From IMG/VR virus record IMGVR_UViG_3300006092_000137, positions 3,951 through 67,950 of that record: a stretch of DNA of 64,000 nucleotides; one strand, 5' to 3'. The notes under the pieces are model-generated. The model did not search any database and had not been told where the DNA came from. It saw only the letters and a program-made list of their open reading frames with translations. This document shows positions 8,226-35,637 of this stretch, piece by piece; position 1 is the first letter of the stretch, and the number at the start of each line of letters is the position of its first letter. Source of the DNA: a virus. Taxonomy: Duplodnaviria > Caudoviricetes. The translations under genes and the position numbers were made by a program.

Positions 8226-8231
8226 CCTTCT

Positions 8232-8257: not shown

Positions 8258-8266
8258 AGGGTAGGC

Positions 8267-8656: not shown

Positions 8657-8658
8657 AA

Positions 8659-11125: not shown

Positions 11126-11134
11126 GGGTCATGT

Positions 11135-11404
11135 ATGGACCCAACACCCCTCTCCGATTTGACCGCCAACCTCACCGATGCGCAGCGCACTCCCGAGAAC
11201 CTCAAGCGCCTCTACGAGAAGCACGTTGTGCGGTACAAAGTGATGCTGCGTGCTCACATGCTGGGCGACCCGGGTTACCGAGGGAAGGAGCTGATGGACT
11301 TGCTTGCAGTGTGGAACGCCGTGAAGGTGGCTGACTTCCGCTGGGAGCACCTGACGAAGGCCGCGCAGGTCGAAGTTTACGACGCGGTTCTAAGTGGGGA
11401 ATGA
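11135..11404 (+). CDS. hypothetical protein
   Basis: high GC3; follows GGAAA-N14-GGGCAAG motif. Confidence 0.65.
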   Translation: MDPTPLSDLTANLTDAQRTPENLKRLYEKHVVRYKVMLRAHMLGDPGYRGKELMDLLAVWNAVKVADFRWEHLTKAAQVEVYDAVLSGE

Positions 11405-11748
11405 GCATGTTCGAATGGAACGTAAGGAAGCCCCGGGGGTTGAAGCTCACCAACCTCCAGAGCGGGAAGTCTGTTGGGTACTACCGCGTCAGCTGTCCCC
11501 ACAACGCTTCGACGGCTCGGGCGGGCGGGGCCTGCGCAGGGTGCTTTGCCCGGTTGTACTATGCGCTGGTGCTGATCAAGGACAACATCGATTCCGCACC
11601 GCAGGTCGTCGAAAGCATCTTCACCTCGATGCGCCAGGAGAACGCGGCAATGCGCTTGAAGGGGACCTACCTCCCGCAGGGCCTCCAGGACGACGGTGTA
11701 CAAGTCCTCCAAAAGCCAATGAAAAAGGCAAAAAAGAAACAGAGTTAA
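11401..11748 (+). CDS. putative Zn-binding protein (paralogue of 9876-10148) with AAxRLxG tag
   Basis: SCPH...GACAGCFARL; ENAAMRLKG; basic tail. Confidence 0.7.
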   Translation: MSMFEWNVRKPRGLKLTNLQSGKSVGYYRVSCPHNASTARAGGACAGCFARLYYALVLIKDNIDSAPQVVESIFTSMRQENAAMRLKGTYLPQGLQDDGVQVLQKPMKKAKKKQS

Positions 11749-11827
11749 CAAAGAAAACGAAATAAACTAAGATTATTGGCGTACAGGGGGAAGGGTCCCC
11801 CGGTTTGTAAGAAAGGGCTGGTACGTC

Positions 11828-12442
11828 ATGAAGCGGTTTCTCCTGGCAGTGCTGTTGGTGGGTTGCGGTTCGGTTGCCCCGGGTGAGCTCGACCCCCTGG
11901 AAGATGCCGGTTCTGAGGCCCTGGACGGGGCTGTAAGCGACGCGGGCCTTCCTCAGGACCAAGACTCAGGGGCGCCCGGATTCGACGCAGGAGAGCCCTC
12001 CCAGGACGCTGGGGAGCCTGTGGTGGATGCCGGGAACCCCATGCCTGTCGATTCGGGCGTTTACGATGCCGGGCAGCCAATGCCCCCGGTTGACGCGGGC
12101 GTGCCCGATGCGGGCCCCCCGGCATGCACCCCAGGCACCCTCGGTTGCGGGTGCGCCTACAACAGCTCCAACATGCAGTGGAGCTGTGGGGCAGGGCAAG
12201 GCGTGTGCGATCTGCAAGCTGGCAAGTGCACCAACTGCGGTTACAACGGAGGCCCATGCTGCAACGGCCCGTCTGGGCGCACCTGCAACGCAGGGTCCTC
12301 TGCGTGTCTGCGCCACACCAGCTCGGTGTATCAGTGCCATGCCAATTTCGCGTGCAGCGCCACCGGTACGGGCACCGTTACCAAAGCGTGCTTCGAAGGC
12401 GGTTGCTGCAACAACCTCACCTGCAACGGAACCTGCGGTTAA
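11828..12442 (+). CDS. lipoprotein with DAG-repeat linker and 18-Cys C-terminal domain
   Basis: MKRFLLAVLLVGC lipobox; ten D[AS]G repeats; Cys-rich end. Confidence 0.8.
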   Translation: MKRFLLAVLLVGCGSVAPGELDPLEDAGSEALDGAVSDAGLPQDQDSGAPGFDAGEPSQDAGEPVVDAGNPMPVDSGVYDAGQPMPPVDAGVPDAGPPACTPGTLGCGCAYNSSNMQWSCGAGQGVCDLQAGKCTNCGYNGGPCCNGPSGRTCNAGSSACLRHTSSVYQCHANFACSATGTGTVTKACFEGGCCNNLTCNGTCG

Positions 12443-12528
12443 CGGGAGAACGCCACCATGCCAATGATGACCTGCATCATTCGTTTCACCGACATCTTCC
12501 GCGCGTTGTTTGGAAGGCTCTGAAGGCT

Positions 12529-12729
12529 GTGCGGCAGGATTGCACGCATTGGATCTGCGATGGCTGCCAGCAGGAGCTGGTGAAGCCGCGCGGCCAAAAC
12601 CCTCGCGGGTGGGTGTGGTATCGCGAGCAGGGCGAGATCAAACATCTGTGCGACAATTGCGCGATCATCGCGAAGCCTTCGAGCGCAAACCCGCTGGGTA
12701 AGGATTTAGGGGCTCGCTATGAGCGATGA
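12529..12729 (+). CDS. small zinc-finger protein
   Basis: CDGC and CDNC; GTG start chosen by RBS, uncertain. Confidence 0.5.
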   Translation: MRQDCTHWICDGCQQELVKPRGQNPRGWVWYREQGEIKHLCDNCAIIAKPSSANPLGKDLGARYER

Positions 12730-13120
12730 AATGACTGGCGCTGTGCCTGGCATCGCGGAGTTTCACCCATGCACGGACTGCTCTGCGTATTACGGGCAAA
12801 GAATTGCCGGGCGCTACGTCATTTACGCCGCTGATGGCCTGGCAAAATTCGCTTGCGGCAATTGCTTGGAGAAGCACCAAGGGCGCTGGGAAGATTTTCT
12901 CGACATGCTGGAGCGCATATACGGGTACGAGGCAGCGATGCGCTTGGGAGCCACTGAACCTCCACAGGATCTGCTCGAAGAGAAGATGACGATCGCAGAA
13001 GCATGGGGCTTCAAGATGGGCTGGCATCGCGGCAGGATCCTCCGCTGCAGGGGCTGCAAGAAAGCCGTCTTCGGCGGGCCTACGCGGTGCCGTGACTGCG
13101 CTGAAAAACTTGCCGTTTGA
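12719..13120 (+). CDS. multi-CxxC protein with AAxRL tag
   Basis: CTDC, CGNC, CRGC, CRDC; EAAMRLG. Confidence 0.6.
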   Translation: MSDEMTGAVPGIAEFHPCTDCSAYYGQRIAGRYVIYAADGLAKFACGNCLEKHQGRWEDFLDMLERIYGYEAAMRLGATEPPQDLLEEKMTIAEAWGFKMGWHRGRILRCRGCKKAVFGGPTRCRDCAEKLAV

Positions 13121-13150
13121 TAGACACGTGTTTTGGGCCGGTGGTACAAC
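13121..13150 (+). promoter_or_regulatory. sigma70-like promoter, possibly leaderless
   Basis: TAGACA (13121-26) N18 TACAAC (13145-50); ATG is the 7th base after the hexamer. Confidence 0.45.
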
Positions 13151-13156
13151 ACGGCC

Positions 13157-13579
13157 ATGCCACGTTCCCTGCTCGTCGTTTTTGCCGTGTCCGTAGCAAC
13201 CCTATTCACCTTCGCCGCGTTTGGGGCCCAAGCGGATAAGGGTCCGCTTGGAACGATCGCAGTGCTGGATGCTGGCTCTGCGAACAATGCATTGAGCAAC
13301 TGCCACACCTGCACGGCCTTCAACCTGCTCCCCAACCACAAGGTCTCGCTTCAGTCGCCCGACTCAGGGGTTTGGTACTGCCTCGATGGTTCCCCAACCT
13401 GCGCTGCAGGCTACCCCGGCATCTGGCTGGCCCCCGGGCCCGTGATTGACGATACGGTGCGCAGGCGCCTGGACGGAGGCATTTCGTGGGGCCTGATTTC
13501 CATCAAATGCGCCACGGGTGTTTCGGTGTGCGACCTCAACGTCTTCGACAACTTCGCAAACGTTCCAGCCTCCCCATGA
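13157..13579 (+). CDS. exported protein with signal peptide
   Basis: MPRSLLVVFAVSVATLFTFAAFGAQA signal-like; several Cys. Confidence 0.7.
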   Translation: MPRSLLVVFAVSVATLFTFAAFGAQADKGPLGTIAVLDAGSANNALSNCHTCTAFNLLPNHKVSLQSPDSGVWYCLDGSPTCAAGYPGIWLAPGPVIDDTVRRRLDGGISWGLISIKCATGVSVCDLNVFDNFANVPASP

Positions 13580-15522
13580 AAAAATTCAGCTTGCTGGTAG
13601 TCGCCACTCTGCTGGTCGGCGCAGTGGCGTCGGCTGGCAGGTACACGCCTCACAACCACAGCCCTCGTTACCGTTTGGGTGCGCACTACAGGTTGCCCCC
13701 ATCTGGCGGTGACAACGGGTTGATCTACAACCTCCTCGGACCAGCGGGTGTTGGGATGCCTGCGGCGCAAGAGCTCTGCGCATCGCTCCAAGCCGGGGAC
13801 AAGTCTGGCAACTGGTATTGCTTGAACGGCGATGGAACGATGGCAAGCGGGAGCGTGCTTACGCTCTCACCGCAGAATTCACCGACCGTTCAAAGCCATG
13901 CGTTGTGCCCCAACGGTGCCAACTGCACAGCGGTGAATAGAAACAAGCTGCTCCGCGCATCCTCGCAGCATTTTGCAACGTCTGCGACCACAGTTCCCAC
14001 GGGCAGCTTCAGCATCGTTGTTCTGTACAGCGACGACCCTACCAATGCGTCAGGGGAGATTGCTTCCAAGTGGGACTTGGGCACGCTCACTTATACGATG
14101 GAAGCAGCGGCAGGTGGCGTGCGCTTTTACGTGAACAACGGTACGTCACAGGTCAATACCATCAACACTTCTGACCGTGCGCTGTACGAAGAGCGGTTTT
14201 ACTGTGCCCGTTACGACACGGCTGATGGGCGAGCACGCTTGCGCGTGAATGGGGTGAACGACACAGCCAGCGGTGCGCTTTCGCCAGCGACGCCGCGCTC
14301 GAACTCGATGGCTTTGACAGTGGGCGCAGCCTCTGGCGGTGGTGCTGGAGTGAACGGGCGCATTCGTGGGTTGTTTTTCACCGAGAAAGCACTTTCTGAA
14401 GCGGACTGTGACCGCATTCAGGCGCTGGTTGTACCCCGCACAATCACGAGCGCGGCAGGGGGTGCCGTAACCTTTTCGCGGAATTCGATTCAAACGTGCT
14501 GCCAAAATTACGGCGATACCACGGGGTGTACTGTGCTCTCTGCAGGTGTGCCCTGCATCAGCGGTTTTGGCGGGGTACTTACGGAGCGTGCCCTGACTCA
14601 AATCCTGCTGCGCACCTATCAGCTCGATAATGCGGCTTGGGCTGACGTTGGCACACCCACCGTCACGGCTAACGCTTACGAAGGGCCCTTCGGTTGGCCC
14701 GACATGGAGAAACTGGAAGACGACGATGGAGCAGCGCTTGAAGGCCGTGAGCAAGTGGTTGCCACGACATCGCAAAACCGTGTCGTGATGACTGCTTGGT
14801 TGCGCAGCGACACCGCTACCGAGGCCACCATGTCGATCACTGGCACGGGTAACAGCGGCGGTGACGTGACATGTGCAATCACGGGGCTTACCAGCACCCC
14901 CACACGGTATGCTTGCATCAGCACGGCTGCCTACGCGGCAGGCATCACGGCCATCACCGCGCGCGTGCTCGTTGGGGATGCGGTCGGGGACACTGGTTCT
15001 ATCGGAGCAGGGCACGTCAACGTGATGATGGACACGTTGGGAGTGCAATCTCGCCCCACCAGCTACGTTCCTGCCACATCAGCTTCAGTGAATCGGGTGC
15101 TGGCGCACGCAGAATTTGCAACGCCTGCAGCTCTTACAGACACAGCAGGCTGTGCGGCAGTTTCGTGGCGCCTCCAAACGCTGAACACCACCAACCAGAT
15201 CAGTGGCATTGCTCTGTACTCTGGGGGGCCTCGTTGGTCCTATTTCAGCAACGCCACCAATGCACGAGGTTTGGACCAAACGACGACTTTGGAGATTGGT
15301 GTCGGCACCGTGTACAACAACCTCGTGCGCACAGGGTACAGCTGGGGAGTGCCTGGAACGAAGCTGCAAAACCTGCTCGCGGGGACCAGCGTTGTTGGCG
15401 CCTACGATGGTACTGCTCGAAGCGGCACGACGGCGATTGGATCCGAGAGCGGCGTCACCAATTACATCGATGGGTACGTCGGGAACATCCAGCTCTACAG
15501 TATTTACGGGGGATGCCAGTGA
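13576..15522 (+). CDS. signal-peptide protein with LamG/ConA-like domain and phage fibre-type C-terminal domain
   Basis: MKKFSLLVVATLLVGAVASA; LamG-like YDTADGRARLRVNG; TERALTQILLRTYQLDNAAW and PTSYVPATSASVNR resemble virion fibre motifs. Confidence 0.7.
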   Translation: MKKFSLLVVATLLVGAVASAGRYTPHNHSPRYRLGAHYRLPPSGGDNGLIYNLLGPAGVGMPAAQELCASLQAGDKSGNWYCLNGDGTMASGSVLTLSPQNSPTVQSHALCPNGANCTAVNRNKLLRASSQHFATSATTVPTGSFSIVVLYSDDPTNASGEIASKWDLGTLTYTMEAAAGGVRFYVNNGTSQVNTINTSDRALYEERFYCARYDTADGRARLRVNGVNDTASGALSPATPRSNSMALTVGAASGGGAGVNGRIRGLFFTEKALSEADCDRIQALVVPRTITSAAGGAVTFSRNSIQTCCQNYGDTTGCTVLSAGVPCISGFGGVLTERALTQILLRTYQLDNAAWADVGTPTVTANAYEGPFGWPDMEKLEDDDGAALEGREQVVATTSQNRVVMTAWLRSDTATEATMSITGTGNSGGDVTCAITGLTSTPTRYACISTAAYAAGITAITARVLVGDAVGDTGSIGAGHVNVMMDTLGVQSRPTSYVPATSASVNRVLAHAEFATPAALTDTAGCAAVSWRLQTLNTTNQISGIALYSGGPRWSYFSNATNARGLDQTTTLEIGVGTVYNNLVRTGYSWGVPGTKLQNLLAGTSVVGAYDGTARSGTTAIGSESGVTNYIDGYVGNIQLYSIYGGCQ

Positions 15523-16151
15523 ATCCACGCCTGAAAATGCTGCTCGCCTTCGTTGGCACTGCCACGGTTGGCGTTGGGAGCGCACTCGTGAGCGTGTACC
15601 TGCCAAAAGAAGACGTTACGCGAGCACAGCTCCTCGATGCTGGTATCACCGACGATTGCAATCAGATCGCCTTGTTCTGCGATGCGGAGATTGACGGCGA
15701 TGCGAGGCCGCAATGGCGCGATGCAGGGTTCTCCAAACGATTTGCTCGGCTTGGCATTCCCGGTTTCCGCTGCCCCGCCGCTGCAGAGGGCGGTGGTAAG
15801 CGAATCATCGAAGACGGCGGACTGATTCTTCCCCCCGGACTTCGCCAGTTGGTAAGGCGCGGGCTTCGAATTTACCTCGATGACTGCGAGTTTGGCCCCT
15901 GTGCGGATAACCGAGACGTCTGCGGAGCGGCGGTATTCGGCGACAACACTCCCTTCGTGGTGAAGCCCCCAACCCACGTGCACGCCCCAATGGATGGGGG
16001 CACTTCCTGCCAGCGGCGCGAGCGGCTCCCTGACGGCGGTACCCGGGTGCGGTATTTTGGTGCAGGCAACGTCTTCCCAGTGGGGGAGGCGGTCGGGTCG
16101 GGGTGCGTGCCGTCGATGAACGCTGCTGACAGCGACCACGACGACTTGTAA
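15519..16151 (+). CDS. membrane-anchored Cys-rich protein
   Basis: GTGA coupling; N-terminal hydrophobic segment; several DAG/DGG. Confidence 0.65.
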   Translation: MNPRLKMLLAFVGTATVGVGSALVSVYLPKEDVTRAQLLDAGITDDCNQIALFCDAEIDGDARPQWRDAGFSKRFARLGIPGFRCPAAAEGGGKRIIEDGGLILPPGLRQLVRRGLRIYLDDCEFGPCADNRDVCGAAVFGDNTPFVVKPPTHVHAPMDGGTSCQRRERLPDGGTRVRYFGAGNVFPVGEAVGSGCVPSMNAADSDHDDL

Positions 16152-16172
16152 CCCCTGCTTTTTCTGGTCCCT

Positions 16173-16198
16173 GGAAAATTGACACAGCCACGGGCAAG
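16173..16198 (+). promoter_or_regulatory. GGAAA-N14-GGGCAAG motif 7
   Basis: 10 nt before ATG 16209. Confidence 0.7.
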
Positions 16199-16208
16199 GT
16201 AAAGGGGT

Positions 16209-16418
16209 ATGCCTCCTTTCATTGCTTTTCTGCTGGGCGTCTCCCTGGGCATGTGGGGCACCTACTTTTGGATGAATGCAAACCGAAGACGCGCGGTACA
16301 GCGCTTCGGAATGATCCACGAGACGATGCACCAGCGCCACATGGAGCACTTGCTGAGTGTCTATCTTTCGACTGGAAAATGTTACCGAGAGGAGCATGTG
16401 CGTGAGTTCAAAAACTGA
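16209..16418 (+). CDS. small single-TM protein
   Basis: N-terminal hydrophobic helix; follows GGAAA-N14-GGGCAAG. Confidence 0.6.
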   Translation: MPPFIAFLLGVSLGMWGTYFWMNANRRRAVQRFGMIHETMHQRHMEHLLSVYLSTGKCYREEHVREFKN

Positions 16419-16434
16419 CCGCAATGCGCCTCAA

Positions 16435-16797
16435 ATGTATTTCCTCGACCGCGAGTACACCGACAAAAACGGGAACAAAATTTCTGGGCGTGAGATGGCA
16501 CTGCTCATGGAAGACATGGAGTACCGCCGTGTCGGTTACACAGAAACCTCGCAAGGCATCACGGTTTCAACGGTTTGGACACCAATCGACGGAGCGTTTG
16601 GATCTGGCCGAAATTTCGAAACAATGGTGAAGCGCAGCGGTGGTTCTTGGTGTGGCTGCTGGCCATACCAGACACAAGCTGAAGCAGAAGCTGGGCACCG
16701 AGAGTTGGTTGAAAGATTCAGTCGTCCTATCAAGGAAGCGGCGGACGCATTGTCTCGCCTGACCGGGGACGAAGAATGGGTGAATTTGTACACTTGA
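16435..16797 (+). CDS. conserved phage hypothetical protein with AAxRLxG tag
   Basis: VSTVW...FETMV motif common in phage hypotheticals; DALSRLTG; start uncertain. Confidence 0.6.
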   Translation: MYFLDREYTDKNGNKISGREMALLMEDMEYRRVGYTETSQGITVSTVWTPIDGAFGSGRNFETMVKRSGGSWCGCWPYQTQAEAEAGHRELVERFSRPIKEAADALSRLTGDEEWVNLYT

Positions 16798-16857
16798 TGC
16801 TGTGCTGGCTTTTGGTTTCGCTGGTGGTGGTGACGTTTTGGGTTTGGCGGAAGTGGC

Positions 16858-17394
16858 ATGATTGAGACGCATCTTCACTGGATGGCATACCCTGGCGATC
16901 GGTACTGGCGGTTGCACCAGGCACGTGTGAAGACAGCCCCGAAGCACCTCGAGGGGTGCCACAAAATTTCCTACGAGTACCTGGCGTTGCGGCATCTTGT
17001 GAAGGGTGGCTGGAAATGGACCATGGAAGTTATTGGACCGCATGGATCCACGCACGAGAAGGGCTTCATCCCAGAAGAGGTGGACCCGCGACCGCTCTGT
17101 GAAGAGCGCTTCCGTGTGTACCTTGCGGCCCGGGCGCTCGTTGGGGGCGGGCCTCTGCTGATGCCTCGAACTTTGGTTTTTGAGAAGCCCTGCGAGCTCT
17201 GCCCACCATCTGTGGTGGCTCGGATCAACAAGCACCACGACAAGTTGATGAACCAGCACATCATCGCTGACTACACCGACACTCTCGGGGAGTTGATGGC
17301 CTTCAACGATAATCTCTGTGGAAAACGAGGCCGTGACATTTTTCTTGGTCTTCAAAGGAAAATTTACAAGCGCTGGGGCAAGGTGCCTGCATGA
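16858..17394 (+). CDS. hypothetical protein
   Basis: 178-aa ORF in operon run. Confidence 0.55.
   Translation: MIETHLHWMAYPGDRYWRLHQARVKTAPKHLEGCHKISYEYLALRHLVKGGWKWTMEVIGPHGSTHEKGFIPEEVDPRPLCEERFRVYLAARALVGGGPLLMPRTLVFEKPCELCPPSVVARINKHHDKLMNQHIIADYTDTLGELMAFNDNLCGKRGRDIFLGLQRKIYKRWGKVPA
17357..17382 (+). promoter_or_regulatory. GGAAA-N14-GGGCAAG motif 8
   Basis: 8 nt before ATG 17391. Confidence 0.65.
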
Positions 17395-22976: not shown

Positions 22977-24863
22977 ATGCCGAGCGCATTGCCGTCGAAC
23001 CCCGGGCTTCTTGGCCGTATGGCGAGCGTGCTCGGAGGCAAGCTGGGCAGCAAAGACAACCCCCAAAACGCCCAAGACCGCGTGCGCCGCTTGGGGCTCT
23101 CAAAGCGCCAGCAGGAGCTCAACCGTCTCTGGGCGGTGTACCGGGGGCAGCAATACGCCCACTGCAAGCTGGACTGGAACGGGCGCGAGAACATCGACGA
23201 CCTGTCGGGGGAAATCATTTCCACGCAGGGGTATGTGCCCCCCGGCTTCATGGACATGGGGCGGGGTGCGGGCAACCTGCCGTTGAAGTTTCGACGCCCG
23301 ACTTCTCCCTACGCGCTGATTCGCGTGGTGGTGGACCGCTTCACGGGCTTGCTGTTCAGCGAGCAGCAGCATCCTGAAATCAAAGTTGATGGGGACCCAA
23401 AAACGCAGGAGTGGCTGCGCGCGGTCGCAAGCACGTCGCGGCTTTGGCAGCATATGATCCAGGCCCGCAATTACGGGGGCTCGATGGGCACCGCGTGCAT
23501 TGGGTTCCAATTCGTCAACGGCAAACCCACCATCGAAGTGCATGACCCAAAGTGGGTTACGCCTGAGTTCAGGAAGCACGGCTCGCTCACGTTGGTGAAG
23601 CTCGAAAAGCGGTACATCTTCGAGAAGGAAGTACGCGACGAGACGACAGGGCGTTGGGAGAACAAGTCATTCTGGTACCGCCGCATCATCGACGAGCAGA
23701 GCGATGTGCTCTTCCAACCAGCGGAAGTCGGCAACGGTGACGAGCCAGACTGGCAAGAAGCCGAACGCGTGGACCACAACTTCGGCTTTTGCCCTGCTGT
23801 TTGGGTGCAGAATCTGCCGGTGCAAGACAGCGAAGACGGGGACCCCGATTGCCCGTCCCCTGTTTATGACAATGCCTGGAACATCGACGCGTTGATCTCA
23901 CAAGCCAACCGCGCCATTTTGGCCAACTGCGATCCGCAGCTCGTCATCACCACGAAGGCGGAGATGGCTGAAGTGCAGATGGCGCTCGACAAGGCCCTGC
24001 GCGTTCCTGAGGGTGACGCCAAGTTTTTGGAGGTGCAGGCGACCGGCCCAAAAGCCGCGCTGGAGCTCTCTGACCAGCTTCGCCGTAATTCGCTGGAGGT
24101 GTCCCACTGCGTACTGGAGCACCCTGATGTGGCAGGCAAAACTGCCACAGAGGTGGAGCGCATGTACCAGGCGATGTTCAACAAGTGTGACATTTTGCGT
24201 GAGCAGTATGGGCAGAAGGGCATTTTGCCCCTGTTGGAGATGTTCCATCGCGCAGCGGTCGCCTTAAACAAGCCCCGCCCGGCTCACCAAGACGCGGCGA
24301 CGCGGCTCCAAGGAACCTTCGAACAACCGCCCCAGGCGCCCCCAGGAACGCAGAACGAGGGGCAGCCTGGGGGTGAGGCTCCCCCCGCCCAGAACGCAGC
24401 TCCTACAGCCCCTCAGGCAGGCGCTGTAACCGACGAGAATGACGGGATGATTATGCCCCAGGGGGCTCTTTTGGTGCGGAGTTCTGTTGTTCTTCCGCCG
24501 ACTTACCAGCTCAACCCCCAGACGGGGCAGATGGAGGAGATTCAACGGGAGCTTGGGTTTGGCGGCACCATCACCTTGGTGTGGCCGGAATTCGTGCGCC
24601 CCACCCTCGACGACCTGACGAAGGCTGTAACCGCGACCACTGGGGCGTTGTCGGCGAACTTGATCGACGACGAGACAGCGGTGGGCTTCGTTGCGCCGTA
24701 CTTCAAGGTCGAAGACAAGAGCGACCTGTTAAACAAGATTCGAAACAACGCTGCTCAGCAGCAGGCGGACATGATGTCGATGTTCGCTTCTTCAAACCAA
24801 CCAAAGCCAAGTGACGTGACGGCTCCTCCTGGACCGATCATTCCGCCTGCTCCAACGGAATAG
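22977..24863 (+). CDS. portal protein with low-complexity insertion
   Basis: size, position before head morphogenesis gene, HNFGFCPAVWVQN motif typical of SPP1-like portals. Confidence 0.8.
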   Translation: MPSALPSNPGLLGRMASVLGGKLGSKDNPQNAQDRVRRLGLSKRQQELNRLWAVYRGQQYAHCKLDWNGRENIDDLSGEIISTQGYVPPGFMDMGRGAGNLPLKFRRPTSPYALIRVVVDRFTGLLFSEQQHPEIKVDGDPKTQEWLRAVASTSRLWQHMIQARNYGGSMGTACIGFQFVNGKPTIEVHDPKWVTPEFRKHGSLTLVKLEKRYIFEKEVRDETTGRWENKSFWYRRIIDEQSDVLFQPAEVGNGDEPDWQEAERVDHNFGFCPAVWVQNLPVQDSEDGDPDCPSPVYDNAWNIDALISQANRAILANCDPQLVITTKAEMAEVQMALDKALRVPEGDAKFLEVQATGPKAALELSDQLRRNSLEVSHCVLEHPDVAGKTATEVERMYQAMFNKCDILREQYGQKGILPLLEMFHRAAVALNKPRPAHQDAATRLQGTFEQPPQAPPGTQNEGQPGGEAPPAQNAAPTAPQAGAVTDENDGMIMPQGALLVRSSVVLPPTYQLNPQTGQMEEIQRELGFGGTITLVWPEFVRPTLDDLTKAVTATTGALSANLIDDETAVGFVAPYFKVEDKSDLLNKIRNNAAQQQADMMSMFASSNQPKPSDVTAPPGPIIPPAPTE

Positions 24864-25552: not shown

Positions 25553-25782
25553 GCGCAGACCCTCCGAATAAGCCGAAGTACGGCAAGGAATGGCCAAAGT
25601 GCGCCGTGTGCGGGCTCATGGCGCAAGACGTTGAGGGTACTCCCCCGCGCTGTAAAGACCCAGACCGATGCTCGAGGGTCATCAAAGGGGAGCCTTTGGG
25701 AGGTACCCCAATGAACATCACCAAGTTGGAAGACATATTTCCAGACCCTCCAATGCCGGAGCACCACAACGGGGTTGAGTGA
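25549..25782 (+). CDS. small Cys/Pro-rich protein
   Basis: CAVC; coupled ORF. Confidence 0.5.
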   Translation: MSADPPNKPKYGKEWPKCAVCGLMAQDVEGTPPRCKDPDRCSRVIKGEPLGGTPMNITKLEDIFPDPPMPEHHNGVE

Positions 25783-26741
25783 TGGCACGGCGAGTACCCC
25801 CTGCCTTTCTTCGTGCGGTGGCTGGCCACCGGAAGCTCTTGGAAAAGACGCTCATTGGCGGAGCCACAGCCAAGATGAAGAAGCTCTACGACGAGGCCGA
25901 AGACACGGTGCTCGCGCGTATTCGTCGAAACATGAAGATGGGGAAAGGCGACACTTTCACCGTCCACCAGCAGCGCATTGTGTTGACCCAACTGCGCCAA
26001 GGGCAGGCGCTCGCAACACAGCGGCTTGCGGGAGACATGCAGCCGTTGAGCAAGAAGGCGCAGGAGGCCAGTTTGAAGGGCCTCGCGGAAGACGTCTCGC
26101 GCTTGCACAAGCACTTCACGGGTTCAGAAATCACGTTGCCTGTGGAAGAAGCGAGCGTCTTCGCTGGCGTCGTAAATCAGCGAGCATCAGCGATGATGCG
26201 CATGCACGAAGCGTCGATGACCAATTACGGGGTGAACATCGTCAGCAAGGTCGAGAAGAAGCTCGCCCTGTCGCTGCTTCAAGGCGACTCCCCGAGCGAC
26301 GTGTACCAAGACATTGCGAACACCATCGACGGTGAATGGTGGCAGGGCGAGCGCATCGTGCGCACCGAAATGGCCTACGCCTTCAATGCCACCCACGCAG
26401 ACGGCATCGAAGAGAGCTCGGCGGAGATCCCTGAACTGATGCAGCGCTGGGAAGAGCATTGCGACGACCTCGGGCAGCCCCTGGACGACCGCGTTGCCAC
26501 TGACAGCATCGCAATGCACGGGCAAGTCACCCAGGCTGGTGGCTCCTTCACCATGCCCTCGACGGCTCCCTTTGCAGGCTCCAGTGGGAAGACGACGGTG
26601 CAGGAGGGCTTGGTGGGGTTGAGCTGGGACTTCCCGCCGAATCGGCCCAACGATCGCGCAGTGCTCTCCCCATGGATGCGTGACTGGGGTGTGCCAGGGT
26701 GGGAGTGGCGCAGAGGTCAGCGGGTTTGGCTCGTTCGTTGA
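25779..26741 (+). CDS. head morphogenesis (Mu gpF/SPP1 gp7-like) protein
   Basis: ERIVRTEMAYAFN and PPNRPNDR motifs, after portal. Confidence 0.85.
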   Translation: MMARRVPPAFLRAVAGHRKLLEKTLIGGATAKMKKLYDEAEDTVLARIRRNMKMGKGDTFTVHQQRIVLTQLRQGQALATQRLAGDMQPLSKKAQEASLKGLAEDVSRLHKHFTGSEITLPVEEASVFAGVVNQRASAMMRMHEASMTNYGVNIVSKVEKKLALSLLQGDSPSDVYQDIANTIDGEWWQGERIVRTEMAYAFNATHADGIEESSAEIPELMQRWEEHCDDLGQPLDDRVATDSIAMHGQVTQAGGSFTMPSTAPFAGSSGKTTVQEGLVGLSWDFPPNRPNDRAVLSPWMRDWGVPGWEWRRGQRVWLVR

Positions 26742-27173: not shown

Positions 27174-28088
27174 ATGCCGATGATGGAGAAGTCGAAGCTT
27201 CACGCGTTCGCAGTGAAAGCCGCGAAACCCCCCAACGGTGCAGTGATGTTGGCGCAAAAGCGGAATGCTTCGAAGGCTCCTCCCCCGATGGCTGGTAAAC
27301 CCGCTGCTCCCGCAGCGGCAGCCCCCGGGGACGAAATGGAAGAAGAGAGCGTCAACCTCTTCGACCTGGTGGAGGAAGCCGCGCAAAAAGCGGAATCGGG
27401 CGAGGACGTTGACCTCGAAGATGTCGTGGCGGAAACGCAAAGCGCGGGGCCTGACGACGTTCCCGAATGGGTCGAAGACCCGGCGAAGTGGGCAGAAGCT
27501 GCTGAGGCAGTTGGTCTTGGCGTGCCCGGCACCGAAGACAAGTACGATGAGCCCATTGTCGTCACGGCCTACCTGTACAAGATGATCGGTGGTCCGGTGA
27601 AAGGGCTTGAGCTCCCTGACGTTCCAGTGAAACCCGAGGACGAAGAGGGCGAGTCAGACATGTCGAAGCCGGGCGCTGCGGCCAAGGCCATTCAGGCCCG
27701 CGCGGCTTCTAAAGGGGCTCCTCCCGCTGCAGGAGCTGCATCCAAAGCACCCCCAGCGGGCGCCAAGGCCCCTCCCGCCGCGCCTGGTAAAGCGCCCCCG
27801 GCAGCTACTGGGAAAGCTCCCGGACCGGCTGCTGGTGCCGAGGGTGGCGACGAGCTCAAGCAAATGCTCGACGAAGCTGCCGAGCAAGCTGCTTCAACCC
27901 CTGACCCGGAAGTTGTCGAGAAGCTGCAGCTCGAACCGCCGCAAGAGGGTACTCCCCCGAGTTGGGCGGTGGATCAGGACAAGTGGGCGAAGGCTGAAGA
28001 GGCTGTGAAAATGCACTGGGACGAGTACCCGGAGCCGTTCATGGTGGTCGCTCACGTGTACAAGAACATGGGCGGCGCGATTCAGTAA
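27174..28088 (+). CDS. acidic Ala/Pro-rich protein with duplicated PxW..KW..YK..GG module
   Basis: AGGAG RBS; two internal repeats separated by an AAP-rich linker. Confidence 0.8.
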   Translation: MPMMEKSKLHAFAVKAAKPPNGAVMLAQKRNASKAPPPMAGKPAAPAAAAPGDEMEEESVNLFDLVEEAAQKAESGEDVDLEDVVAETQSAGPDDVPEWVEDPAKWAEAAEAVGLGVPGTEDKYDEPIVVTAYLYKMIGGPVKGLELPDVPVKPEDEEGESDMSKPGAAAKAIQARAASKGAPPAAGAASKAPPAGAKAPPAAPGKAPPAATGKAPGPAAGAEGGDELKQMLDEAAEQAASTPDPEVVEKLQLEPPQEGTPPSWAVDQDKWAKAEEAVKMHWDEYPEPFMVVAHVYKNMGGAIQ

Positions 28089-28124
28089 AAAACCTGTAGG
28101 TTTTCCACACCTTAAAAGCGCTTC

Positions 28125-28150
28125 GGAAAATGCCTTGGAAAAAGGGCAAG
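28125..28150 (+). promoter_or_regulatory. GGAAA-N14-GGGCAAG motif 9
   Basis: 10 nt before ATG 28161. Confidence 0.7.
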
Positions 28151-28160
28151 AGAACAAGAA

Positions 28161-28718
28161 ATGGCGAGCGGAGCTGAAATCGATAAATTGAAGCAAAAGC
28201 TTGCACAAGCCCGTGCAAAGGACCCGTATGGGTCAGAGCAGAGAAAGCTTTTCAATAGACTTGCGCGGTATGAAGCGAAGCGCACTGTTGAACGGAATGC
28301 CTATTACAATTCTGGTTTTAAAGAGACCCCCAAAGCTGCTTATTCAGGTTTCGACGAAACGGCTCTTCGACAGAAATTTCGAGATGAAGTTGAACCTGAA
28401 CTCAAAGTTTCTCATGCGCAACATGAAGCAGAGAAGCTTCGAGCAGCCGGAGATAAAGTTGGAGCATTCAAGCATGAGATGAAGGCAACGTCGGCCTTCA
28501 ACAAAGCAGCGCTTGACAAGTTGGTTAAGTTGAAGGCTGAAGGAAAGCTCTCGAAAGAGGCCGTTGAGAAATTGAAGACTGCCAAAGAGAAAATGGACTC
28601 GATCAATAAGCGGCTCGGCGGTGAAAACAAAGAGCAGTCTAAAAGTATCGAGACCGGTGCTCGTGGCGGACGCTATTACATGAGCGACAGCGGGCAAAAG
28701 GTCTACATCAAGGAGTAG
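28161..28718 (+). CDS. Lys/Glu-rich helical protein with C-terminal basic-adaptor-like module
   Basis: ends ETGARGGRYYMSDSGQKVYIKE. Confidence 0.8.
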   Translation: MASGAEIDKLKQKLAQARAKDPYGSEQRKLFNRLARYEAKRTVERNAYYNSGFKETPKAAYSGFDETALRQKFRDEVEPELKVSHAQHEAEKLRAAGDKVGAFKHEMKATSAFNKAALDKLVKLKAEGKLSKEAVEKLKTAKEKMDSINKRLGGENKEQSKSIETGARGGRYYMSDSGQKVYIKE

Positions 28719-28730
28719 AGGAGGCGAGTA

Positions 28731-29054
28731 ATGTCAGACGAAGAAGCCCGGAAATACCTGAGGGAGTACTTCTCACCGCAGGCCGTAGAGAAGCGGCAAA
28801 TGGAGGCGATGAAGAAGTATGCGAAGAACCGGAAGGCTCGCGCCGCCTACAAAGAAAAGAATGCCACCAAAGCGGTTGACCGACGAATCGCTCAGAAGGA
28901 AGCAACTTCCGAGAAGGTGCATGAACGAAACTCGACGGAGGCTGTCGATAAACGAATTGCTGAAAGGGCAGACGCTGCAAAGAACATCGAAACGGGCGCA
29001 CGCGGCGGTCGGTATTACTTGAGCGACAACGGTCAGAAGGTCTACGTCAAATAG
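28731..29054 (+). CDS. Lys/Glu-rich helical protein with C-terminal basic-adaptor-like module
   Basis: ends ETGARGGRYYLSDNGQKVYVK; internal repeat AVDRRIAQK/AVDKRIAER. Confidence 0.8.
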   Translation: MSDEEARKYLREYFSPQAVEKRQMEAMKKYAKNRKARAAYKEKNATKAVDRRIAQKEATSEKVHERNSTEAVDKRIAERADAAKNIETGARGGRYYLSDNGQKVYVK

Positions 29055-29059
29055 GTGCA

Positions 29060-29686
29060 GTGATGGACGAGTCGCCAAAAGCTTCCTTCGCGAAGGACTT
29101 CCGCAAGTTGAAGGCACAGCTTGCGACGCTGCGTCAGCAACGCGCCCAGACGGTTGCCAAGTATGAGAGCTCGAAAGCGTCTCATGCATCGACGATGGCT
29201 GCATTTGCAAAAGCGGAGCAGGCCAACAAAGACCGATACGCTGAGAAGCTGAAAAGCATTCAGCAAAACCACGAAGCCAAACTGGCTGCTATTCGTGAAA
29301 AGCATGCAGCACGGCGGGCTGCCGATGGCGTAACTCCAGAGCGCGCAGCACAGATCATGGAGCAATTGAAGGCCAAGAAAGCCGCTGTAAAAAAACCGGC
29401 TGAGAAAGCCTCAGAAAAAAAGTCGTCTGGCGGGGATATCAAGAACGCAAGCTTTGCGGACTTGAAAGCGAAGTACGATGCTGAGGCGGCTGCGGGGGGT
29501 GCCTTGAAGGGCACTCCGGAGTTCAAAGAGGTCACGAAAGAGCTCAAACGTCGTGGTATCGCAACCATCACTGAGCTCTACAAACGTGCCGAAGAAGAGA
29601 AGGAAGGGCGTGGGGCTGAGCAGACAGGACCGCGCGGAGGTCGCTACTATCTGAGTGCGTCAGGTCAAAAGGTCTATGTGAAGTAA
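29060..29686 (+). CDS. Lys/Ala-rich helical protein with C-terminal basic-adaptor-like module
   Basis: ends QTGPRGGRYYLSASGQKVYVK. Confidence 0.8.
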   Translation: MMDESPKASFAKDFRKLKAQLATLRQQRAQTVAKYESSKASHASTMAAFAKAEQANKDRYAEKLKSIQQNHEAKLAAIREKHAARRAADGVTPERAAQIMEQLKAKKAAVKKPAEKASEKKSSGGDIKNASFADLKAKYDAEAAAGGALKGTPEFKEVTKELKRRGIATITELYKRAEEEKEGRGAEQTGPRGGRYYLSASGQKVYVK

Positions 29687-30094: not shown

Positions 30095-30611
30095 ACTGAT
30101 ACTCGCAGCTGCTGCCCGTGCTGCTCCACCAGCAGCGGCTCCCCCGTCTGACCCGCTTACTCCCCTTTATGCGCTCGTCGGTGCGCAAGTGGTCATCAGC
30201 CTCATTGGGACGGGTGTCATTTTTGTGCGTTGGCTGGCGAGCCGCGCGGTCGCAAATGAAGACAAAGAAAAGCAGGAGCTGAAAGCAAGAATTGACAAGA
30301 TGGAGCAGCGCTTTGAGGAGCGCCTTGAAGAGCAAGACAACGCCAACAACGCGCTCGAAAAATCAGTTAACTCGCTTCAGAGTGACGTGAAGCAGGTGCT
30401 CAGTACCACGGGGAGTATGCACGGGGGTATCACAGAGCTCCGCCTGAACTTTGAGAAGCACATCGACAAGCAGGCCGCGCATTACCGCGACGAAGTGAAG
30501 ACGTTCATTATCAGCATGGAGAAGAAGGTAGAGGAGTCAGAAATTCGCCTTCGGCAGGACATGACGCGCGCTATTGCTGATCACCTGCGAGCGAAGCGGA
30601 AGAACATTTAA
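30054..30611 (+). CDS. single-TM coiled-coil protein
   Basis: TM YALVGAQVVISLIGTGVIFV then coiled coil; true start probably a downstream TTG. Confidence 0.65.
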   Translation: MQRKTSSWKKLILELILAAAARAAPPAAAPPSDPLTPLYALVGAQVVISLIGTGVIFVRWLASRAVANEDKEKQELKARIDKMEQRFEERLEEQDNANNALEKSVNSLQSDVKQVLSTTGSMHGGITELRLNFEKHIDKQAAHYRDEVKTFIISMEKKVEESEIRLRQDMTRAIADHLRAKRKNI

Positions 30612-30964
30612 AGCCAAGCAACTGCGAGACGAATGTCTGCGATGCTTGGTGGCTTTGCGACCACCATGTGCACAAGGCCGTCACGCACGGCGCGGGTTAC
30701 AGCTTCTTCTTTTGGCGCGGCGGTAATCAGCACACGGCGAACGTCTGGTCTACGCTCACGAAAGACTTCCAAGACCTCGATGCCATCCATGCGCGGCATC
30801 ATGTAGTCGGCGAGCACTGCTTTCAGGTCTTCGTTTTGAACGTGTTTGGTGATGGCCTCAAGTGAGTTGGTTTCGACAACAGCTCGCTGCTTACAAAACT
30901 CCGCCATGTCAGCCACCAACCGGGCTACGGACTCATCGTCGTCGAGGCACAAAACGAAGGTCAT
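30608..30964 (-). CDS. stand-alone response regulator receiver (CheY-like)
   Basis: LCLDDD, phospho-acceptor LADYMMPRMDG, ITA, AKP. Confidence 0.92.
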   Translation of the reverse strand: MTFVLCLDDDESVARLVADMAEFCKQRAVVETNSLEAITKHVQNEDLKAVLADYMMPRMDGIEVLEVFRERRPDVRRVLITAAPKEEAVTRAVRDGLVHMVVAKPPSIADIRLAVAWL

Positions 30965-31010: not shown

Positions 31011-31364
31011 GTGACCATCAAGCTCTTCGACACCCTGGCGCAGAAAGAGTACCAGCAGGAGCTGGAAACTTACGATGCGCGAATCACGGCTGCGCAGCAG
31101 GCCGGGGGTATGTGGCCGATGGACCTCCAGTACCCACGCCCGCCCGAGCCGATGATTAACAGCCGCGACCCCGGGCTCGACCCGAGCTCACGCAACCCCG
31201 GAGCGTTGAGCTACCCCACGCCTGCGTTGGTTGGTTCGGACCCTCGTCCGATGGATCCCGTGGACCTCGACGGCACTTCGCAGTCGAACGTGAAAGGTTT
31301 CGACTCGCGGTGGAGCACGGATCACGACGCCGACTTTTCGCCGTTCAAAACCACGAAGGGATAG
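31011..31364 (+). CDS. Pro-rich disordered protein ending SPF
   Basis: high GC3; ends DFSPFKTTKG. Confidence 0.65.
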   Translation: MTIKLFDTLAQKEYQQELETYDARITAAQQAGGMWPMDLQYPRPPEPMINSRDPGLDPSSRNPGALSYPTPALVGSDPRPMDPVDLDGTSQSNVKGFDSRWSTDHDADFSPFKTTKG

Positions 31365-31370
31365 CCACCA

Positions 31371-31601
31371 ATGTTCAAGGGACCTGTTGGACCTCAAAGC
31401 GGGCAGACCCCGCGCACCATCGCCGAGAAGAAGGGCACCGACCCTGCTGGCTTCGTGGAAGGCCCTGCTTATGACGTGAAGGGCGGGCACCCCATCACCA
31501 AGCAGATGCCGGAACAGACGTACAAGGCTCAGACGATGAAGGCCCCGGTCGGCGGAACGCCGATGGAAATCCCGGCTCCATTCGCTGTCGGTTCGAAGTA
31601 A
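31371..31601 (+). CDS. small Pro/Gly-rich protein ending PAPF
   Basis: ends IPAPFAVGSK. Confidence 0.7.
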   Translation: MFKGPVGPQSGQTPRTIAEKKGTDPAGFVEGPAYDVKGGHPITKQMPEQTYKAQTMKAPVGGTPMEIPAPFAVGSK

Positions 31602-31647
31602 GGTAAGCAGCACCCGCGCAGTAAACAGTTTTCGCAGGGAGAGGAAA

Positions 31648-31833
31648 ATGCCCGATCAGCCGCTGTACCAAGAGTTCGGCAAGCCGATGGCCGATGGAAC
31701 GAAGACCTCGGACGAGATCTTCGACGCCAAATACGGGAAGTACAAAGAGACGGGCGTGTGGAACAAGGACGGCTCGAAGGAGAACCCCTCGTCCGCCATG
31801 AACCCGCAGCCGTTCGGCAGCATGAAGAAGTAA
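31648..31833 (+). CDS. small protein ending PQPF
   Basis: GAGG RBS; ends NPQPFGSMKK. Confidence 0.7.
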   Translation: MPDQPLYQEFGKPMADGTKTSDEIFDAKYGKYKETGVWNKDGSKENPSSAMNPQPFGSMKK

Positions 31834-31885
31834 GCCCTCACCAACCTCACCCTCGCCGTGCTGTACCCAAAGGAGTTGATGCACC

Positions 31886-32083
31886 ATGGAAAATCTGGAC
31901 TCGGTTTTGAAAAGTGCCGTGGAGAGCGGCGACGTGATGAAGAAGGTCGATGCCGCGCACGGGCAGTACAAAGACAAGGTCGCGGACAACACCAACACCA
32001 TGTCGAAGCTCCCTCAAGCCTCGCTGCCCCAGGCACCTGACCCGTCTCCCTTCACGCTGGGCCCTATCGGCGGCGGTAAGTAA
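31886..32083 (+). CDS. small protein ending PSPF
   Basis: AGGAG RBS; ends DPSPFTLGPIGGGK. Confidence 0.7.
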   Translation: MENLDSVLKSAVESGDVMKKVDAAHGQYKDKVADNTNTMSKLPQASLPQAPDPSPFTLGPIGGGK

Positions 32084-32100
32084 ACCAAAAGCGCTGTTCC

Positions 32101-32149
32101 CTGCTCCCGCGCGGTGTATCCCCCTCCGCCCGCGCGGGAGCAGATTTTT
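32101..32149 (+). terminator. intrinsic terminator
   Basis: 14-bp perfect stem CTGCTCCCGCGCGG/CCGCGCGGGAGCAG followed by ATTTTT. Confidence 0.75.
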
Positions 32150-33184: not shown

Positions 33185-34108
33185 GTGAACGAGTCGGAGA
33201 CAGTAATCGAGGAAGAAGCGATGCCAGATAATATTGACCCGAACGTTACAGCTTCCGCCGTCACTTCAACTGACGGTGGACCACCGCTTGGTGCTGGCGG
33301 TGGCGCTCCTCCGATGGATACAGGGGACGAAGCAGCAGTACCGTCGCCCGCAGCGGCACGACCGGAATCCAAAGTGGTTACCGTTCCGACCTCTGCGATG
33401 CGTCGCATCAAGGAAGAAGAGTACGCACGTGGGAAGCAGTCAGCCCTGGACGAGTTGTCCTCGGGCGCGGGCTTCAAAAGCTCTGCTGACTTCATCGCCG
33501 CGCTGCAAAAGCTCAATGCTCCAGCTCAGGCCCCAACGCCTGCGCCGCAACGAGCTCAACCGCAGCAAGCTCCACAAGGGGCTGAAGATGAAACGGATCC
33601 TGCTTCTCAGCTGATGAACGACAAGGCTGAGCGACGCGAAGCAGGGAAGTACCAACGTCAGCTGGAGAAGACGCTGAACGAGCGCAACCGGTACGCTGCG
33701 CAAGCTCAGCAGTGGCAAGTCCGAGCCAAAGAGGCTCAGGCTGAAGCAGATGCAGTTCGCGCTGAGATGCACCTGCGCACCATCGCCGCGAGCGTTGGCG
33801 TGCAGGACATCGACTACGCGATCACGTTGTTCAGTCGTGAGGTCGAGCGTTTGACACCAGAAGAGGCGAACACGTTCGATGAGCGGGTGTACTTCGAAGG
33901 GCTCCGAAAAACGAAGCCCATGCTGTTCGGAGAGACGGTCGTACCTGCTACCACCGGCACTGGAACAGGAGGCGCGCCGACGCCCCCCAAGCCAGGGCAT
34001 GTGGCCGCGACCAACGGAGCGAACGGTAAGTTCGATGGCCGTAAGGCAACGCCACAGCAGCTCGCAGAAGAGCTGAAACGGCGAGGAATCACCTCCTACG
34101 GGGCGTAG
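33185..34108 (+). CDS. capsid scaffolding protein
   Basis: acidic/Pro N-terminus, coiled coil, immediately before MCP. Confidence 0.75.
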   Translation: MNESETVIEEEAMPDNIDPNVTASAVTSTDGGPPLGAGGGAPPMDTGDEAAVPSPAAARPESKVVTVPTSAMRRIKEEEYARGKQSALDELSSGAGFKSSADFIAALQKLNAPAQAPTPAPQRAQPQQAPQGAEDETDPASQLMNDKAERREAGKYQRQLEKTLNERNRYAAQAQQWQVRAKEAQAEADAVRAEMHLRTIAASVGVQDIDYAITLFSREVERLTPEEANTFDERVYFEGLRKTKPMLFGETVVPATTGTGTGGAPTPPKPGHVAATNGANGKFDGRKATPQQLAEELKRRGITSYGA

Positions 34109-34233: not shown

Positions 34234-35637
34234 ATGCCTGATTTCAGCGTAATCGCCCAGGCGCCCGAAATTCGGGCTCTGGTTCAAGACGGTATCTTGG
34301 AGCGCGCGTTCCACGATTCTCTCTTTCCCAAGCTGCTGTTCCGCAGCGAAGCCACTCCGGTCCTCTGGCCCGGAAATGTCGGCGACCGGATGATCTTCAC
34401 CGGCACCGGTCTGTTGGCGAAGAACCAGCGCCCGTTGACCCCTGGTGTGGACCCGACGCCGAAGGCGTTCGCAGCTGAGCAGTGGGAAGCCACCGCACAG
34501 CAATACGCTGACACCATCGACACGCACATGCCCACCAGCATGAACGCGATCGCCAACCTGTTCTACCGGAACGCTCAACAGCTCGGTCTGCAGGCTGGTC
34601 AGTCGATGAACGGCTTGGTGCGCAACAAGATGTACAATGCAGCCCTCTCGGGCTGGACCGTGTGCGACGGTGCTCAAGTGGCCGTCAACACCGTTCGCGT
34701 GAAGCGCCTCAACGGCTTCACCCGCGCGCGCCGCCCGGATCTTGCTGCCGGTTCGCCGGTTCGCTACGACCCCGTGTCGGCATCGAACCCGCTGCCCATC
34801 AAGATCTTCGCGGGCTCGGAGCTGAGCCGCAACGTCATCGGCTTCACCGCCGACAACGCTGGCGATGAAGTGGGCCCGGGCACCATCCTGCTCGACGGCG
34901 CGGCGGTGACCGTGACCGACCGTGACTACGTCTTCTCGACGACCGCGACCAAGATCGTGCGCGTCGGTGGCGGCAACAAGGTGGATGACGTCGGCAGCTC
35001 CGACGTGCTGAAGCTCTCGGACCTGCGGTCGGCGATCGCTCGTCTGCGTCAGCAGAACGTCCCCGAGCACCAAGACGGGTACTTCCACTGCCACTTGGAC
35101 CCGATCTCGGAAGGCCAGATCTTCGCGGACCAAGAGTTCCAACGGCTCCTGCAGTCGTTGCCGGACTACTACATGTACAAGCAGTTCGGTGTTGGCGTGC
35201 TCTTGGGCACGATCTTCATCCGCAACAACGAGTGCCCCCTCCCGGACACCGTGGTCGGCGGTTTGACCGCGACTTGGTCGCTCGACGACCCGTTCGCGGG
35301 CGAGCTGTACAACAACGGCAACGCGAGCACGGGCGTCAAGATTCACCGCCCCTTGCTCTCGGGCCAAGGTCTGGTGATGGAGTACTACCAGGACCTGGCG
35401 AACCTGCTCACCGAGGCAGGCGTCACCGGGCGCACCGCCGAGCCGCGCATCACCAACAACGGCATCGACGTGTTCACCGAGCGCATCCAGATGATCATCC
35501 GCGCCCCGATGAACCGCCTGCAGGACATGGTGGCCACCACCTGGAAGTTCATCGGCGACTGGCCGGTGCGCACGGACGGCGCGGTGGGTGACTCGGCTTA
35601 CTTCAAGCGCGTCATCGCCATCGAGCACGGCGAGTAA
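34234..35637 (+). CDS. major capsid protein
   Basis: 467 aa, extreme codon bias, follows scaffold, followed by hairpin; fold not verified. Confidence 0.85.
   Translation: MPDFSVIAQAPEIRALVQDGILERAFHDSLFPKLLFRSEATPVLWPGNVGDRMIFTGTGLLAKNQRPLTPGVDPTPKAFAAEQWEATAQQYADTIDTHMPTSMNAIANLFYRNAQQLGLQAGQSMNGLVRNKMYNAALSGWTVCDGAQVAVNTVRVKRLNGFTRARRPDLAAGSPVRYDPVSASNPLPIKIFAGSELSRNVIGFTADNAGDEVGPGTILLDGAAVTVTDRDYVFSTTATKIVRVGGGNKVDDVGSSDVLKLSDLRSAIARLRQQNVPEHQDGYFHCHLDPISEGQIFADQEFQRLLQSLPDYYMYKQFGVGVLLGTIFIRNNECPLPDTVVGGLTATWSLDDPFAGELYNNGNASTGVKIHRPLLSGQGLVMEYYQDLANLLTEAGVTGRTAEPRITNNGIDVFTERIQMIIRAPMNRLQDMVATTWKFIGDWPVRTDGAVGDSAYFKRVIAIEHGE

Follow-up and report, generated by a model that had tools for sequence, protein, structure and literature searches.

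A PF08789-like tag on three tandem basic proteins in the head region of an uncultured activated-sludge phage

Why should three neighbouring phage genes, which encode otherwise dissimilar proteins, end in almost the same 21 residues? The question is raised by positions 28,125 to 29,686 of a 64,000-nucleotide stretch of viral DNA, hereafter the window, which corresponds to bases 3951-67950 of the 67,950-base IMG/VR contig IMGVR_UViG_3300006092_000137 (77% complete by CheckV). The source is an uncultured myovirus-like phage from activated sludge. Identical DNA is present on longer contigs of activated-sludge metagenomes, and activated-sludge samples of a second study, with runs labelled metatranscriptomic that are probably DNA, hold the identical cassette; a megablast search of the window against a phage collection gave no match.

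The cassette consists of three genes on the plus strand. They encode protein A (28161-28718; 185 residues, isoelectric point (pI) 9.7, net charge +13), protein B (28731-29054; 107 residues, pI 9.8, net charge +10) and protein C (29063-29686; 207 residues, pI 9.9, net charge +18). For protein C an ATG at 29063 gives the 207 residues also found in the database copy, and a GTG at 29060 would give 208. We refer to the shared end of the three proteins as the tag and to the remainder of each as its body.

One peptide on three bodies

The C-terminal ends of the proteins read ETGARGGRYYMSDSGQKVYIKE (A), ETGARGGRYYLSDNGQKVYVK (B) and QTGPRGGRYYLSASGQKVYVK (C), and over 21 residues they follow the consensus TG[AP]RGGRYY[LM]Sx[SN]GQKVY[VI]K. 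The tag copies lie on the plus strand at 28650-28712 (ETGARGGRYYMSDSGQKVYIK), 28989-29051 (ETGARGGRYYLSDNGQKVYVK) and 29621-29683 (QTGPRGGRYYLSASGQKVYVK), and there are no others in the whole 67,950-base contig. Across 23 aligned codons the pairwise DNA differences amount to 15, 26 and 27 of 69 bases, and 10-12 of the 14-18 differing codons per pair are synonymous. The divergence is thus mostly silent, and therefore the peptide rather than the DNA is what has been conserved. Read at the codon level, this pattern indicates that the peptide has been under purifying selection, and neither a recent gene conversion nor an artefact of assembly can account for it.

The bodies behave differently. With the tags masked, they have no mutual BLASTP similarity at E <= 0.01. 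Compared with the tagged proteins of the phage's relatives, by which we mean 42 loci retrieved with the major capsid protein (53-78% identity), the masked bodies give a single weak BLASTP match, that of body A to a protein of locus L095 (30% over 97 residues, E 3e-4), which we take to be compositional. A word-based search with protein C retrieved only protein C itself, and a region search that looked for longer proteins with protein B as query gave no match. Codon comparison and tag-masked BLASTP hence confirm what had been noticed in the original prediction, namely near-identical protein ends, synonymous differences in the DNA and unrelated bodies. Its further suggestion that the bodies may be anti-defence effectors does not fit what they look like, since none is an enzyme or a recognisable effector of this kind and each is a basic helix rich in Lys, Glu and Ala that matches no family.

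This very composition invites the objection that there is no modular tag function at all, and that A, B and C arose as tandem paralogues in a single low-complexity helical family, whose C-terminal hairpin alone is under enough constraint to be recognised. All three bodies are of the same helical type, such helices quickly lose detectable similarity, and tags A and B also have junction residues before the core in common. We nevertheless consider this explanation very unlikely: the module to which the tag belongs is found, in arrays or at one end or the other, on folded domains as clearly unrelated as HNH, SNase, kinase and RelA/SpoT, and the nearest relatives, with capsids 77-78% identical, carry different bodies in the same slot.

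Structure prediction is consistent with a separate unit. In the AlphaFold2 (AF2) model of protein A a disordered linker separates five helices from a β-hairpin at the C-terminus, with strands at residues 170-174 and 180-184; the model's mean predicted local distance difference test (pLDDT) score is 71.7. When the tag was modelled alone with 26 aligned homologues, strands formed at positions 22-25 and 31-34 (pLDDT 75-85). The tag models as a self-contained mini-domain of about 21 residues, in which a Gly-rich loop, G-x-R-G-G, is followed by a Tyr-rich β-hairpin or small β-meander. The ideas that it might be WW-like or resemble a choline-binding repeat were dropped; no WW domain is among the Foldseek matches listed, of which the top row is the glucan-binding repeat region of alternansucrase (E 2). 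A protein atlas gave no usable feature matches, and the structure neighbours there have low TM scores only, some of them being clusters of PF08789.

The tag as the core of PF08789

The original prediction named the PBCV basic adaptor domain, PF08789 (PBCV_basic_adap; profile length 38, gathering threshold 20.4 bits), and no other family is matched at one common place in all three proteins. In a six-frame search tags A, B and C score 15.8, 18.1 and 16.3 bits, below the cut-off. Tag A covers profile positions 12-31, and the window tags together align to positions 12-31/32 of 38, leaving the first ~11 positions without a counterpart. The core G-[PA]-[RK]-G-G-x-[YF]-Y ... G-x-K-x-Y is present in all three. 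The structural likeness extends to the general design, as PF08789 too is a small stand-alone fold placed on unrelated domains, a part played here by the AF2 hairpin or mini-sheet after the disordered linker.

Membership was also assessed by an indirect route. We built a profile from 26 tags of the window phage, its relatives and other viral contigs; in the alignment the invariant columns are the same Gly and Tyr positions as in the PF08789 core. At E <= 1e-3 this profile retrieves 1,954 representatives of 50%-identity clusters among 1.84 billion, and 102 of the best 149 proteins retrieved match PF08789 at E <= 1e-3. One relative (L074) has a tagged open reading frame (ORF) between portal and MuF genes that passes the PF08789 cut-off (21.4 versus 20.4 bits), and two gut viral contigs with the same core (L018 and L037) reach 31.7 and 25.3 bits. 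Because the transitive profile search reaches PF08789 members, we regard the window tags as the minimal conserved core of this family, a sub-threshold but well-supported member at the level of sequence. The match to PF08789 therefore stands as a family link, whereas direct hmmscan does not deliver it: proteins A, B and C score 13.7, 14.9 and 13.2 bits, all below 20.4, which weighs against the assignment.

The notion that the domain is specific to PBCV had to be given up, as the module is widespread in bacteria and phages. To describe its use we took the best 150 of the 1,954 library proteins, bearing in mind that the top of the list is biased towards multi-copy proteins. In 125 of them a copy ends no more than 8 residues from the C-terminus, in 3 copies lie only near the N-terminus and in 22 they are all internal; 118 of the 150 have at least two copies. 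An extreme case is P0002, a protein of 3,223 residues with 33 matched stretches in the library search, 15 of which pass a stricter scan, at a spacing of ~115-190 residues. Among the best 120 longer proteins the recognisable partners are mainly the nucleases HNH (48) and SNase (8), many encoded on chromosomes of Flavobacteriia. Other partners of the module are protein kinases, SH3_3, SPOR, DnaJ and DUF5763. Viral contigs add further arrangements. A 54-kb contig with 66% GC over the locus (L010) encodes, at 6010-6927, a protein of the RelA/SpoT family that resembles alarmone synthetases and has the tag close to the N-terminus. The loci L044-L050 contain only an orphan tag fragment of 22 residues, which immediately follows a stop codon and has no reading frame upstream of it. 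This is probably what remains of a gene, perhaps, as we guess, of a host gene cut at a prophage border, and some supposedly viral SNase-tag loci may therefore be host flank. Taken together, the sequences present the module as a general portable binding device, neither PBCV-specific nor virion-specific.

Two known groups of proteins are directly comparable. The PBCV-1 proteins A278L and A282L carry PF08789 with the same core, G-[PA]-[RK]-G-G-x-[YF]-Y-x(4-5)-G-x-K-x-Y, appended to unrelated basic virus proteins. The window proteins differ from them in that the bodies are non-enzymatic helices and not Ser/Thr kinases, the virus is a tailed phage and not a chlorovirus, and a 21-residue minimal core is carried by three tandem genes in a head module. 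Bacterial HNH and SNase proteins with one to several PF08789 repeats, from Flavobacteriia and other Bacteroidota, have the same module, usually C-terminal and in a variant flavour, I-[HY]-TGPRGG..YIN..GNK.Y; in contrast to the phage proteins they are chromosomal, often have a signal peptide, bear tandem copies and have no link to virions. A mini-domain that fills nearly two thousand 50%-identity clusters by the tag profile alone, with a binding function that is presumed, is of interest well beyond this phage. A literature search on the domain name and accession found only the PBCV-1 virion study (PMC3281028), and no earlier description of a PF08789-like core in a phage head region was found there.

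A possible role inside the phage head

What might such a device do in this phage? We give an about even chance to the idea that A, B and C are DNA-associated internal head proteins, with the tag acting as a general polyanion binder, most likely of nucleic acid. Nucleic acid is favoured because fusions of the module to two unrelated nuclease families and to further enzymes arose independently, because it often occurs in arrays, as is usual for polymer binders, and because it is rich in Arg/Lys and Tyr. The tag would then give different proteins the same anchoring point. A flexible linker would join it to the basic helical body, and the bodies may oligomerise, so that several tags would be presented at once. 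The tagged proteins would become part of the procapsid, cover or neutralise the DNA after packaging and exit together with it.

They may be packaged, judging solely from gene position. The structural module is of myovirus type and its plus-strand genes follow the order portal (22977-24863; phrog_145, 9.9e-6), MuF-like head morphogenesis protein (25779-26741; phrog_115, 1.8e-7; Pfam Phage_Mu_F weak at 16.5 bits), acidic protein (27174-28088), tagged cassette, scaffolding protein (33185-34108; PF06810, 1.5e-7; phrog_2303), and major capsid protein (34234-35637; phrog_1357, 1.3e-13); tail sheath and tape measure genes come next. The cassette thus follows portal, MuF and acidic protein and precedes scaffold and capsid, a position that supports a head protein. 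A role in the virion also has a precedent in PBCV-1, where the PF08789-bearing kinases A278L and A282L number ~400-530 copies in each virion and are recovered together with the viral DNA (PMC3281028).

The original prediction had described a DNA-gripping or capsid-loading tag. The modular half of this holds, with unrelated bodies, C- or N-terminal placement and single or tandem copies, and the DNA role is plausible by analogy; a dedicated capsid-loading tag is not what we find. The module is common on chromosomal bacterial proteins with signal peptides, and in gut phages it is encoded beside a CI-like repressor, so it is not a dedicated virion address.

Comparisons can be made with known packaging signals. 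In phage T4 the internal proteins IPI-III and Alt carry an N-terminal capsid-targeting sequence of ~10 residues, which is unfolded and is removed by the prohead protease. The likeness to the cassette is one of concept only: a short sequence is common to several unrelated small basic proteins, which in T4 come to lie with the DNA in the head. The window tag does not fit the T4 type (N-terminal, ~10 residues, cleaved by the prohead protease): it is predicted to be a folded hairpin, is mostly C-terminal, comes with no identified cleavage site or protease and occurs outside phages. Scans of window ORFs with Pfam, PHROGs and NCBIfam did not recognise a prohead protease. For a cargo-loading peptide of the encapsulin type, a short C-terminal peptide with specificity for the inside of an HK97-fold shell, the observations point both ways: the tag is C-terminal and the capsid phage-type, and elsewhere the module is carried by secreted bacterial proteins, N-terminally or as tandem copies. 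MuF-fused polymorphic toxins and polyvalent proteins of phages, reportedly the subject of work by Jamet et al. in 2017 and Iyer et al. in 2017, resemble the cassette in that variable proteins beside portal and MuF turn over among relatives. They differ in that the window MuF (25779-26741) is a separate gene, the tagged proteins are without a toxin or enzyme domain, and no immunity-like partner gene was seen.

Several points weigh against internal DNA-bound head proteins. The support for DNA binding is indirect, coming from the nuclease partners and from the DNA-associated virion proteins of PBCV-1. Nor was a related solved structure found: a PDB sequence search gave chance hairpin matches only, for example in beta-propeller repeats and zinc-finger linkers, and nothing reached E <= 0.001 when Foldseek was run on the tag model. 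The DNA of tailed phages is threaded naked through the portal, so a DNA-binding tag alone cannot load a protein into the head; a contact with the procapsid would be needed, and none has been identified for the tagged proteins. Moreover, 84 of the 150 top library proteins have a signal-peptide-like N-terminus in a crude hydrophobicity test. The association with the head is not general either, because in gut phages of the L009 type the tag ends a 168-residue protein encoded next to a CI-like repressor. No cultured phage that would provide a virion proteome for comparison was found: tblastn of a 35-residue tag against cultured phages gave no match, and an SNase-tag protein matched cultured phages through its SNase part only. 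Searches for related loci with the phage-type library proteins P0125, P0097 and P0122 found no viral contig.

The comparison of relatives adds to these doubts and at the same time makes the locus attractive. An HMM (hidden Markov model) scan detected tagged ORFs in 15 of the 42 related loci, at 0-3 per locus. One is found in each of L056, L057, L076, L078 and L079 and two in each of L058, L074 and L096, while L059 has three, one with an N-terminal tag. L080, L094 and L095 have one each, on a protein of 577 or 905 residues, and L060 and L087 have one each, 3' of the capsid gene. Eleven of the tagged related loci have their tagged ORFs placed between portal and scaffold. About 15 relatives span the MuF-to-scaffold interval without a tagged gene, and for this reason the cassette is dispensable for head assembly, which again speaks against the proposed role. 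On the capsid tree the presence of the tag changes at least three times, and the bodies differ even from those of L056 and L057, the relatives whose capsids are 77-78% identical to that of the window phage. An invariant array had been named beforehand as a refuting observation; gain, loss and different bodies are what the relatives display. Their genomes suggest that the tagged genes form an accessory, fast-turning-over cassette inside the head-morphogenesis region, and this family offers a clean natural experiment, in which a single tag is combined with changing bodies and comes and goes between close relatives, next to the portal and MuF genes.

The cassette also stands apart in composition. 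Its GC content is 0.50 at 28001-29000 compared with about 0.60 in the flanks, and GC at third codon positions (GC3) is 0.49, 0.64 and 0.58 in genes A, B and C versus 0.75, 0.76 and 0.86 in the portal, MuF and capsid genes. Both values bear out the earlier remark that the block is more AT-rich than its surroundings, and because GC3 too is lower than in these head genes, the bias is not merely an effect of amino-acid composition. Similarly, the cassette has its own copy of a repeated motif. GGAAA-N14-GGGCAA[GT] occurs in 9 exact copies in the window, all on the plus strand, where 0.9 would be expected. The ninth, GGAAA-N14-GGGCAAG at 28125-28150 on the plus strand, ends 10 nucleotides before the ATG at 28161, and the other eight (3509-17382, that is 3.5-17.4 kb) precede small, non-structural accessory genes. 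The motif is absent from the other fetched loci, relatives included. What had been called promoter motif 9 is thus an over-represented sequence that does precede the cassette, and its promoter role remains putative; the copy is a candidate regulatory site, and the motif may act either as a promoter of near-leaderless mRNAs, specific to this phage, or as a signal for translation. Around the cassette neither a sigma-70-like promoter nor a plus-strand terminator-like site was found, and the 28-mer at 28090 is unique. Owing to its own motif copy and lower GC3, the cassette may be regulated apart from the head genes, which is not what would be expected of head proteins.

These observations lend themselves to another explanation, in which the tagged proteins bind DNA but are not packaged, and act in the infected cell as a moron-like cassette that happens to sit in the head region. 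They could, for example, coat phage or host DNA, serve as nucleoid-type proteins or shield DNA from host nucleases. Besides the motif otherwise confined to accessory genes, the low GC3 and the patchy presence of a dispensable cassette, this explanation gains from the wide use of the module outside virions and from a minus-strand response-regulator moron just downstream, which indicates that the region accepts insertions. It has to contend with the fact that tagged genes repeatedly adjoin portal and MuF, also in two phages with other portal families, and that the PBCV-1 proteins with PF08789 are virion proteins (PMC3281028). The two phages in question are L007 (portal phrog_64) and L008 (portal phrog_12), whose tagged genes follow the portal and have the tag near the N-terminus. 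On balance we consider action in the cell without packaging rather unlikely.

The acidic protein upstream (27174-28088, plus strand) suggests yet another partner for the tag. It is Pro/Ala-rich, has a net charge of -25 and ends in a duplicated C-terminal domain of ~45 residues with the pattern W..KW..A.EAV...Y.EP..VV..VYK..GG; it matches no family. Homologues adjoin tagged genes in seven loci (L056, L057, L058, L076, L078, L079 and L096), some with very long Pro-rich regions and others with none, and no homologue was found in relatives without tags. In consequence the tag might be a docking peptide for the acidic protein, portal, MuF, scaffold or capsid interior and not a nucleic-acid binder, working like the coat-binding end of a scaffold or the cargo-loading peptide of encapsulins. 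The location within the head module and the complementary charges, -25 versus a summed +41 for the tagged proteins, agree with this. The co-occurrence, however, reduces to three independent contrasts on the capsid tree, two in the same direction and one without difference (p 0.5), and L059, L074 and L080/L094/L095 have tags and no acidic homologue. Organisms without these phage partners, moreover, have the module in plenty, both on secreted bacterial nucleases and as tandem arrays; it works at either terminus, and the Foldseek search, without a significant match, gave none to peptide-binding folds. Docking to a protein is accordingly an improbable function, and we retain the acidic protein as a possible partner of the tagged proteins.

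Returning to DNA-associated head proteins, a bolder version can be formulated. The PF08789 core might be a cross-kingdom address for riding with the genome, gripping viral DNA or a conserved head component, by which tailed phages and giant viruses load and deliver arbitrary proteins; the acidic Pro-rich neighbour would imitate DNA and, as a chaperone or dock, keep hold of the basic cargo until it is packaged. We regard this as unlikely. For the present the cassette is best taken as one more case, well documented, of a known domain whose role here is plausible and still to be proved. Should the tag bind DNA, its 21 residues would make a portable DNA anchor of practical use, and should it also get proteins into capsids, it would offer an easy way to load phage heads with cargo.

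Neighbouring genes and further motifs

Within the cassette, gene B is preceded by a strong Shine-Dalgarno sequence, GAGGAGG. The cassette is followed on its 3' side by a coiled-coil ORF and a membrane ORF. The response-regulator moron mentioned above encodes a stand-alone receiver domain inside the head region (30608-30964, minus strand; Pfam Response_reg, 2.7e-16), and several small ORFs, including those at positions 31011-32149 of the window, lie between it and the scaffold gene. A scan of the cassette and its neighbours with NCBIfam gave no match.

Two further sequence patterns were noted. A subtype of the tag, found in L011 (5524-6165), in L058 (2582-3067) and in the library proteins P0129, P0132 and P0134, has a conserved extension of ~34 residues with the pattern K.NPG..VVGHM..Q.F..GLP.SVHL.EP.RR, perhaps a second module, perhaps a site of processing. 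Finally, the window MuF protein (26690-26741) and all its homologues in L056-L096 end in the conserved motif G[IV]P[GA][WY]x[WY]xxGxR[VI], which is aromatic, looks hairpin-like and resembles the second half of the tag; the tag HMM does not detect it.

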